DNA of 64,000 bases from Escherichia coli (GTDB lineage: Bacteria; Pseudomonadota; Gammaproteobacteria; Enterobacterales; Enterobacteriaceae), in the NCBI RefSeq assembly GCF_003334305.1, contig NZ_QOWS01000002.1. One strand, written 5' to 3'. Below, piece by piece: positions 23,276 to 23,585 of the stretch (its first letter is position 1; each line of letters begins with the position of its first letter). A model generated the notes under the pieces. That model worked only from the letters and a program-made list of their open reading frames with translations, had not been told where the DNA came from and made no database searches. The translations under genes and the position numbers were made by a program.

Positions 23276-23585
23276 TGTTCAGACCTTTTTTAAACTCTCT
23301 TATGCTCGGCAGTTTGCTTTTTCCTTTTATTGCCATCGCAGGAAGCACCGCGCAAGGGGGGGGATCCATTTTTATGGCCAAATTGTGGAACCGGCATGTG
23401 ACGTCAGCACCCAGTCATCACCCGTAGAAATGAACTGCCCACAGAATGGTTCTGTTCCGGGCAAAACCTATTCCAGCAAAGCGTTAATGAGCGGTAATGT
23501 TAAAAACGCGCAAATAGCCTCAGTAAAAGTGCAGTATCTTGATAAACAGAAAAAGCTGGCTGTAATGAACATCGAATATAACTAA
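23276..23585 (+). pseudogene. ymdA: ymdA interrupted by a frameshift at a G8 homopolymer
   Basis: N-terminal signal-peptide ORF (ATG 23276, MFRPFLNSLMLGSLLFPFIAIAG...) runs through G8 at 23356-23363 and stops at 23428; the C-terminal part continues in the +1 frame to 23585. Confidence 0.6.

Follow-up and report, generated by a model that had tools for sequence, protein, structure and literature searches.

The G8 run in ymdA of Escherichia coli marks an inherited, probable loss-of-function allele

In the analysed stretch of Escherichia coli DNA, which comprises 64,000 nucleotides and is referred to as the window, the gene ymdA is disrupted by a frameshift at a run of eight guanines. We consider it probable, at roughly 85 %, that this is an inherited loss-of-function (pseudogene) allele of ymdA which arose by the loss of a single T subsequent to a synonymous change, spread by descent and recombination and has on rare occasions been reopened by a ninth guanine (G9).

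The gene order around the lesion, csgB-csgA-csgC-ymdA-ymdB-clsC, is the usual E. coli arrangement. The ymdA pseudogene occupies 23275..23585 on the plus strand, as delimited by alignment with intact alleles and by the RefSeq entry 'protein YmdA, frameshifted' on identical sequence. In this alignment it measures 311 nt compared with 312 nt in intact alleles, so that the disruption relative to intact orthologues is due to an indel which is not a multiple of three. The lesion site is the run GGGGGGGG at 23356..23363 (+), the sole G/C run of eight or more in the window. The N-terminal ORF starts with ATG at 23275 and ends with TAG at 23425-23427. Its translation (23275..23427, +) yields 50 residues which comprise the signal peptide and seven mature residues (29 YmdA residues in total), a glycine and an out-of-frame tail of 20 residues. 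Frame-2 translation of 23364..23585 (+) reveals the C-terminal 73 YmdA codons (IHFYGQIVEPAC...NIEYN) followed by the stop codon TAA at 23583-23585. This part is otherwise undamaged and equals the intact G7TG allele except at the tract. The insertion of one base into the G8 run restores an unbroken YmdA of 103 residues, which bears out the claim of the first-pass annotation of this DNA that ymdA is split by a frameshift at this tract. While the ORF and stop structure given there stands, both of its limits, 23276 and 23428, are off by one (correctly 23275 and 23427). It had also let the C-terminal part resume in the +1 frame at 23385. Actually, the frame is +2 (= -1) relative to the first ORF and YmdA homology picks up straight after the run at ATC 23364, GTG 23385 being just the first start codon met by the ORF finder in that frame. 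Its observation that the lesion creates a GGATCC (BamHI) site holds: the site, at 23362..23367, has no counterpart in intact alleles, which read GTGATCC. With respect to composition the run is unremarkable, as dinucleotide shuffles contain 1.43 runs of the G8 type per window and at least one in 61 of 100 cases; its weight comes from the comparison with intact orthologues.

This comparison with K-12 and other strains, which the first-pass annotation had suggested, was carried out, and the intact K-12, O157 and B2 alleles confirm the loss of one base. K-12, O157:H7 and one B2 strain, which are more distant, read CAA GGG GGC GTG ATC and thus possess a run of five Gs only (GGGGGCGTG). The nearest intact haplotype (O39:H21) reads CAA GGG GGG GTG ATC, i.e. 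GGGGGGGTG or G7TG, while the window and strain M8 have G8, CAA GGG GGG G-G ATC, corresponding to GGGGGGG-T-G minus T. Because the nearest intact allele (G7-T-G) harbours an interrupting T, the G8 homopolymer is, judged by these alleles, the product of the lesion and neither its substrate nor its cause. Slippage within a pre-existing G tract, to which the frameshift had initially been ascribed, is hence abandoned as its origin.

In the history we propose, a haplotype of the phylogroup B1 type would first have undergone the synonymous exchange GGC>GGG, converting GGGGGCGTG to GGGGGGGTG. A single T would then have been lost, whereby the two G blocks fused to G8 and the frame shifted after codon 29. 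This may have happened directly, by a one-base deletion through misincorporation or misalignment at a T with Gs on either side, or via a T>G exchange leading to G9 with a subsequent -1 slip. Models for frameshifts adjacent to runs comprise Streisinger slippage as well as the 'dislocation' and misincorporation-realignment mechanisms of Kunkel and Bebenek. Applied to the T flanked by Gs in G7-T-G, misincorporation or dislocation could lead from one and the same intermediate to G8 (loss of T) or to G9 (T>G). Both end products exist, and it is from these alone that we infer the route in ymdA. Translation from the intact, CsrA-activated start would end at 23427 and release the 50-residue peptide. 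The C-terminal 73 codons are equipped with neither a signal peptide nor an independent start, and no functional YmdA would be formed; the fragments of the broken gene are presumably without function. The G8 allele would have had one origin or very few, would subsequently have acquired linked SNPs and spread, so that about 4 % of the sequenced E. coli, among them the 55989/O104:H4 lineage, now carry it. The newly formed run would constitute a mild slippage hotspot which, within the G8 clade, has gained a G on two sub-haplotypes or more.

The abundance of the tract alleles was determined in 5,426 complete E. coli genomes with queries of 67-70 bases, for which one difference lowers the identity to below 99 %; each raw count contained one spurious partial match, which was subtracted. 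The intact G7-T-G allele is present in about 855 of these genomes, the G8 allele of the window in about 217 (~4 %) and the in-frame G9 allele, which entails Val30Gly, in 28. G6-T-G occurs in 10, G8-T-G and G7 occur in 5 each, and for G10 there is no exact match among the 5,426 genomes. A look-up of exact proteins was discarded as an estimate of frequency since the fragments (50 and 66 residues) are rarely called (in 5 and 54 contigs, respectively), compared to at least 1000 records of the intact forms. G8 is carried by ECC-1470, by EC93 and by 55989, which dates from the Sanger era, as well as by at least seven O104:H4 genomes produced in different laboratories and on different platforms. Over 24.9 kb round the locus the window matches E. 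coli strain A7, isolated from an orangutan, at 100 % of positions, and 461 bases round ymdA are 100 % identical in M8 and W12-1, the M8 gene being annotated as 'frameshifted' in RefSeq. The same flag is attached to ymdA in 11 of 11 G8 carriers examined. Lesion and local sequence of the RefSeq/PGAP entries 'protein YmdA, frameshifted' (55989, O104:H4, M8, GE3, ECC-1470, EC93 and others) are identical to those in the window, which is a carrier of this known allele. As Sanger-sequenced 55989 and many independently sequenced O104:H4 genomes carry G8, the allele is real and not a sequencing artefact. Among the options the first-pass annotation had left open, sequencing error is thereby dismissed for the allele, while the pseudogene is upheld: the allele is inherited, as is evident from its approximately 217 carriers in complete genomes and from derived SNPs which are linked to it in a nested manner.

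To follow this inheritance, we aligned 15.6 kb (ghrA to mdoH) of 21 carriers of different alleles and the window, which comprise 161 SNPs, and polarised the SNPs of the flanks by means of a 3.5-kb alignment including K-12, O157 and B2 outgroups. Across the 15.6 kb the flanks of the tract are mosaic, from which it follows that recombination has occurred. The derived SNPs near the tract (23800T, 24864T, 22940A) form a clean nested series. It leads from G7TG with 23800G (E2865, CUVET23) via G8 with 23800G (O104:H4, 55989, ECC-1470, HB-Coli0) to G8 with 23800T, the state of the window, and further to G8 with additional 24864T (EC93, O128:H27) and, finally, additional 22940A (M8, GE3, RM10466). Position 23800 (+) is G in the outgroups and in all G7TG carriers, while T, the derived state according to the outgroup comparison, is restricted to G8 and to rare G9 carriers (ST130, L035, L037) and marks a G8 subclade including the window. 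Exact G8 together with 23800T is found in at least 42 complete genomes, and 23800T never accompanies G7TG in the sample. This series is consistent with a single origin followed by descent; given the mosaic flanks, a few independent origins of G8 are possible. The exchange at 23800 changes codon 41 of ymdB from GCA to TCA and is hence non-synonymous (Ala41Ser), and it is tightly linked to the G8 allele of ymdA. It could represent hitch-hiking or a functional co-change in a macrodomain protein encoded by the same operon. Dense blocks of linked SNPs are observed farther downstream in clsC (24349-24952, about 20 SNPs in 600 bp) and mdoC (25695-26148, 9 in 450 bp). Irrespective of the sequence next to them, these blocks alternate between a 'K-12-like' and a 'window-like' state, which is a clear mosaic due to short-tract recombination within B1 strains.

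The G9 allele is nested within the G8 haplotypes. In ST130 it resides on the background carrying 22940A, GE3 being 2 SNPs away over the 15.6 kb; L035, an independent draft contig, shows G9 on the same GE3-type sub-haplotype. In L037, G9 is located on a haplotype which equals that of the window at every informative site. By parsimony, the direction of these changes is most readily explained by at least two +1 slips inside the G8 clade which would have restored the frame with glycine replacing Val30, although some nodes might have had G9 as the ancestral state if G9>G8 slips were much faster. Additionally, G9 is present on at least four backgrounds which otherwise harbour G7TG (C5/JE86/A39, 503025, C6-like and E2865-like), where it may have arisen directly by T>G. 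Altogether, G9 is thus found on at least six flank backgrounds, two of them inside the G8 clade. The exact G9 protein occurs in 3,611 blocks of a large collection, and since many of these are short-read drafts G9 is not a long-read artefact. In G8 carriers ymdA has undergone 0-1 further changes and a second lesion is absent, hence there is no sign of relaxed constraint or decay. The undecayed gene body is compatible with a young pseudogene or with a gene which is kept usable by occasional reversion.

That the tract was misassembled in this particular isolate, its true state being G9 or G7TG and the gene intact, is very improbable. The tract length in the window is taken from one assembly, which belongs to the same strain series as the error-prone A15. 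Homopolymers are commonly miscalled when genomes are assembled from long reads, A15 having four +1 insertions in 28 kb, and L037, an independent contig whose flank haplotype is identical to that of the window, carries G9. The errors in A15 are, however, insertions and not deletions, and the window contains no other private single-base indel compared to 21-23 genomes over 15.6-28 kb, which argues against a homopolymer miscall. Moreover, the 23800T clade is mostly G8 (in at least 42 exact genomes versus G9 in ST130, L035 and L037, with A15 discounted), and the G8 allele is established on many platforms including Sanger sequencing (55989). In the RefSeq assembly of A15 the +1 homopolymer insertions affect ymdA (T6>T7 and G8>G9), msyB (C5>C6) and mdtG (G4>G5). 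T6>T7 introduces a second frameshift into ymdA (L027, the A15 locus, 19975-20287). Pseudogene calls in that strain series need caution. Strain A7, likewise a member of it, nevertheless looks clean over the 28 kb examined. The otter isolates A15 (G9) and A17 (G8), which had been considered as a near-clonal pair, were rejected since A15 is error-ridden and the two differ by many SNPs. Likewise, the calls of Z142-3 (G9) and 2015C-3905 (G8TG) were not used alone, as in both of these 'complete' assemblies the G6 run of mdoH at 30104-30109 is altered by a single-base indel (+1 in Z142-3, -1 in 2015C-3905). Both of these indels shift the frame of mdoH; they are almost certainly assembly errors and serve as a useful internal measure of how often homopolymers are wrong in the reference collection. 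The presence of G9 on the Z142-3 background is corroborated by L031 and L038. Since long reads alone underlie many of the assemblies in which the rare ±1 variants occur, the reality of G8TG, G6TG and G7 is doubtful and a good part of them may be errors.

The first-pass annotation had further considered a phase-variable contingency locus, in which selection would maintain a G8 OFF/G9 ON switch for a secreted, fimbrial-like modulator of biofilm formation, and slipped-strand mispairing would flip this switch with appreciable frequency. Similar to the contingency loci of Neisseria, Haemophilus and Campylobacter, ymdA possesses a poly-G run in the 5' part of an ORF coding for an exported protein, and ±1 changes of the run toggle the frame: the repeat at codons 28-30 is in frame as G9 and out of frame as G8, G7, G6TG and G8TG. 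The OFF length and the ON length are both present in the E. coli population, ±1 neighbours exist for every common tract length, G9 has appeared on at least six flank backgrounds with two within the G8 clade, G8 carriers have retained an undamaged gene body, and the product, by virtue of its signal peptide and FimA-like N-terminal strand, belongs to a type of protein which is often phase-varied. Despite these parallels, such a locus in the classical sense is decidedly improbable. The tract is not conserved across the lineages carrying the gene but is missing in the majority of E. coli, K-12, O157 and B2 having G5CGTG and about 855 genomes the interrupted G7TG; compared to established contingency loci it is recent, restricted to some lineages and made by two point changes. 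Clonal groups are uniform: O104:H4 and 55989 have G8, as do three FORC strains, while two JE86 strains and four strains of one series from India (503025, 503440, 504211, 503829) all have G9. No record labelled O104:H4 occurs in the complete lists of G9, G7, G6TG and G8TG carriers. Length variation within a clone or among very close relatives was not found, the closest discordant pair being GE3 (G8) and ST130 (G9) with their 2 SNPs in 15.6 kb, and several of the rare variants occur in assemblies with other homopolymer errors (A15, Z142-3, 2015C-3905). E. coli is proficient in mismatch repair, and in such a host a run of eight bases is expected to slip slowly, by orders of magnitude more slowly than the contingency tracts of Neisseria, Haemophilus and Campylobacter. 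Nothing at ymdA suggests high-frequency switching or selection for mutability. We conclude that ymdA is not a classical contingency locus and that slippage is visible on evolutionary, not on epidemiological, timescales. A weaker variant, according to which some B1 lineages harbour an incipient switch between G8 (OFF) and G9 (ON, Val30Gly), i.e. a newborn contingency locus created by two point changes (the synonymous GGC>GGG and the loss or replacement of one T) whose slippage is frequent enough for selection to act upon, is unlikely. If true, it would toggle a CsrA-activated, secreted and biofilm-repressing protein in a mismatch-repair-proficient species, and the undamaged gene body together with the repeated appearance of G9 in the G8 clade would be its footprint. 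Finally, full-length YmdA (with Gly30) might be produced from the G8 allele itself, either through ribosomes shifting by -1 on G_GGG_GGA or through transcriptional slippage adding a G. Formally, G GGG GGA fits the X_XXY_YYZ heptamer, a weak criterion, the G9 protein is precisely what would result from a -1 shift or from an additional G in the mRNA, and the leader is intact, as is the remainder of the ORF. A downstream stimulatory structure was not detected, though, as the 87 nt following the run fold no better than shuffled sequences (z = 0.20). The frameshifted state is derived, confined to a minority (~4 % of genomes) and not conserved in orthologues, and in E. coli runs of G are poor slippery sites compared with runs of A or T. 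We therefore regard recoding as extremely improbable and adhere to the inherited pseudogene.

The protein which is lost in G8 carriers normally comprises 103 residues including a signal peptide, and the N-terminus of its mature form, GSTAQGGVIHFYGQIVEPAC, resembles the N-terminal strand of FimA. The repaired (G9) product matches PF27184:YmdA in 10 of 10 loci according to precomputed assignments, whereas a Pfam-A profile search with the repaired protein gave no match in the copy of the database used. In the donor-strand region, residues 23-49 (GSTAQGGVIHFYGQIVEPACDV) can be aligned to the N-terminus of mature FimA, the major subunit of type 1 fimbriae, and both the lesion and the Val30Gly exchange fall into this shared motif. 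The resemblance does not extend to a complete pilin domain, as models and structures of the FimA type align to YmdA residues 23-52 alone with 13-22 bits compared to cut-offs of 140-247, and all FimA-like matches in NCBIfam are sub-threshold. In contrast to FimA with its ~160-185 residues, YmdA is only 103 residues long, about 27 of which match (21.7 bits versus 140); it constitutes a Pfam family of its own (PF27184), and no chaperone-usher operon is adjacent. Among intact alleles pN/pS ranges from 0.00 to 0.27 and the mature region is almost invariant, which indicates that ymdA is normally under constraint.

The leader of ymdA, which is promoter-proximal and contains four GGA motifs (CsrA sites BS1 and BS2; SD sequence GAGGAA), was assigned to 23155..23274 (+) by alignment to K-12-type and O157 sequences. 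Within 23155-23290 (136 aligned bases, including the 120 nt upstream of the ATG) the window is identical to both, so that the expression signals are intact and the truncated peptide of 50 residues is presumably still made. Since the frameshift follows the seventh mature residue, loss of YmdA function is a reasonable inference. In K-12, ymdA is expressed, and CsrA strongly activates its translation by opening a hairpin which sequesters the SD sequence (PMC7492729). Deletion of the gene has a mild effect, an increase in biofilm by 45 %, while over-expression lowers biofilm formation (PMC7492729). The phenotypes reported for K-12 concern, besides biofilm, the apramycin MIC. This mild deletion phenotype fits a tolerated loss of ymdA. 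The downstream gene ymdB (23680..24213, +), which according to gene list and annotation codes for O-acetyl-ADP-ribose deacetylase and belongs to the same transcription unit, is intact. No intrinsic terminator is predicted between ymdA and ymdB, and a polar effect of the early stop codon on ymdB and clsC is conceivable.

The lesion as such is already known, as it is annotated as a pseudogene by RefSeq in every G8 carrier examined, and as a finding it is of little importance, the gene having a mild knockout phenotype. A pan-genome study from 2025 reports a ymdA frameshift in KE46 as the explanation for a 'missing' extended-core gene (PMC12595684). In the same manner, the one-base lesion described here removes ymdA from 'core genome' counts for about 4 % of strains. 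The best-ranked papers mentioning ymdA contain no account of the tract, of the series G5CGTG > G7TG > G8 > G9 or of the Val30Gly allele, and ymdA does not occur in a survey of Escherichia homopolymer tracts. The class of mechanism, a frameshift in or beside a homopolymer with occasional slippage, is textbook knowledge, and the allele series is a small evolutionary footnote to it. It would illustrate how a silent substitution lengthens a run and thereby paves the way for a frameshift, which is then followed by restoration of the frame with an amino acid scar (Val30Gly). In addition, it shows that a rare tract length found in a 'complete' long-read assembly is often an artefact, and that reads are needed before it is taken for phase variation. 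That the enteroaggregative lineage O104:H4/55989 would lack YmdA, a reported repressor of biofilm formation, may merit a footnote in studies of aggregation.

Two further observations concern the surroundings of the locus. The sequence upstream of the tRNA-Ser(GGA) gene (15427-15514, minus strand), at about 15400-15430, is highly variable among strains. Some possess dgcT-IS3-ycdU with 0-3 copies of the 'RtT sRNA' repeat, O104:H4, 503025, E2865, C6 and 12689 contain a CP4-like island with the toxin-antitoxin genes yeeS/yeeT/cbeA/cbtA, and in still others efeB-phoH is directly adjacent. This flank thus appears to be an integration hotspot. The tRNA-Ser gene itself includes a G7 run at 15436-15442. 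In the G9 carrier L031 (GPEC548, CM142809.1), an IS1 element is inserted in the intergenic regulatory region between csgD and csgB, upstream of csgB (approximately positions 650-1350 of that locus), where it is expected to affect the regulation of curli.
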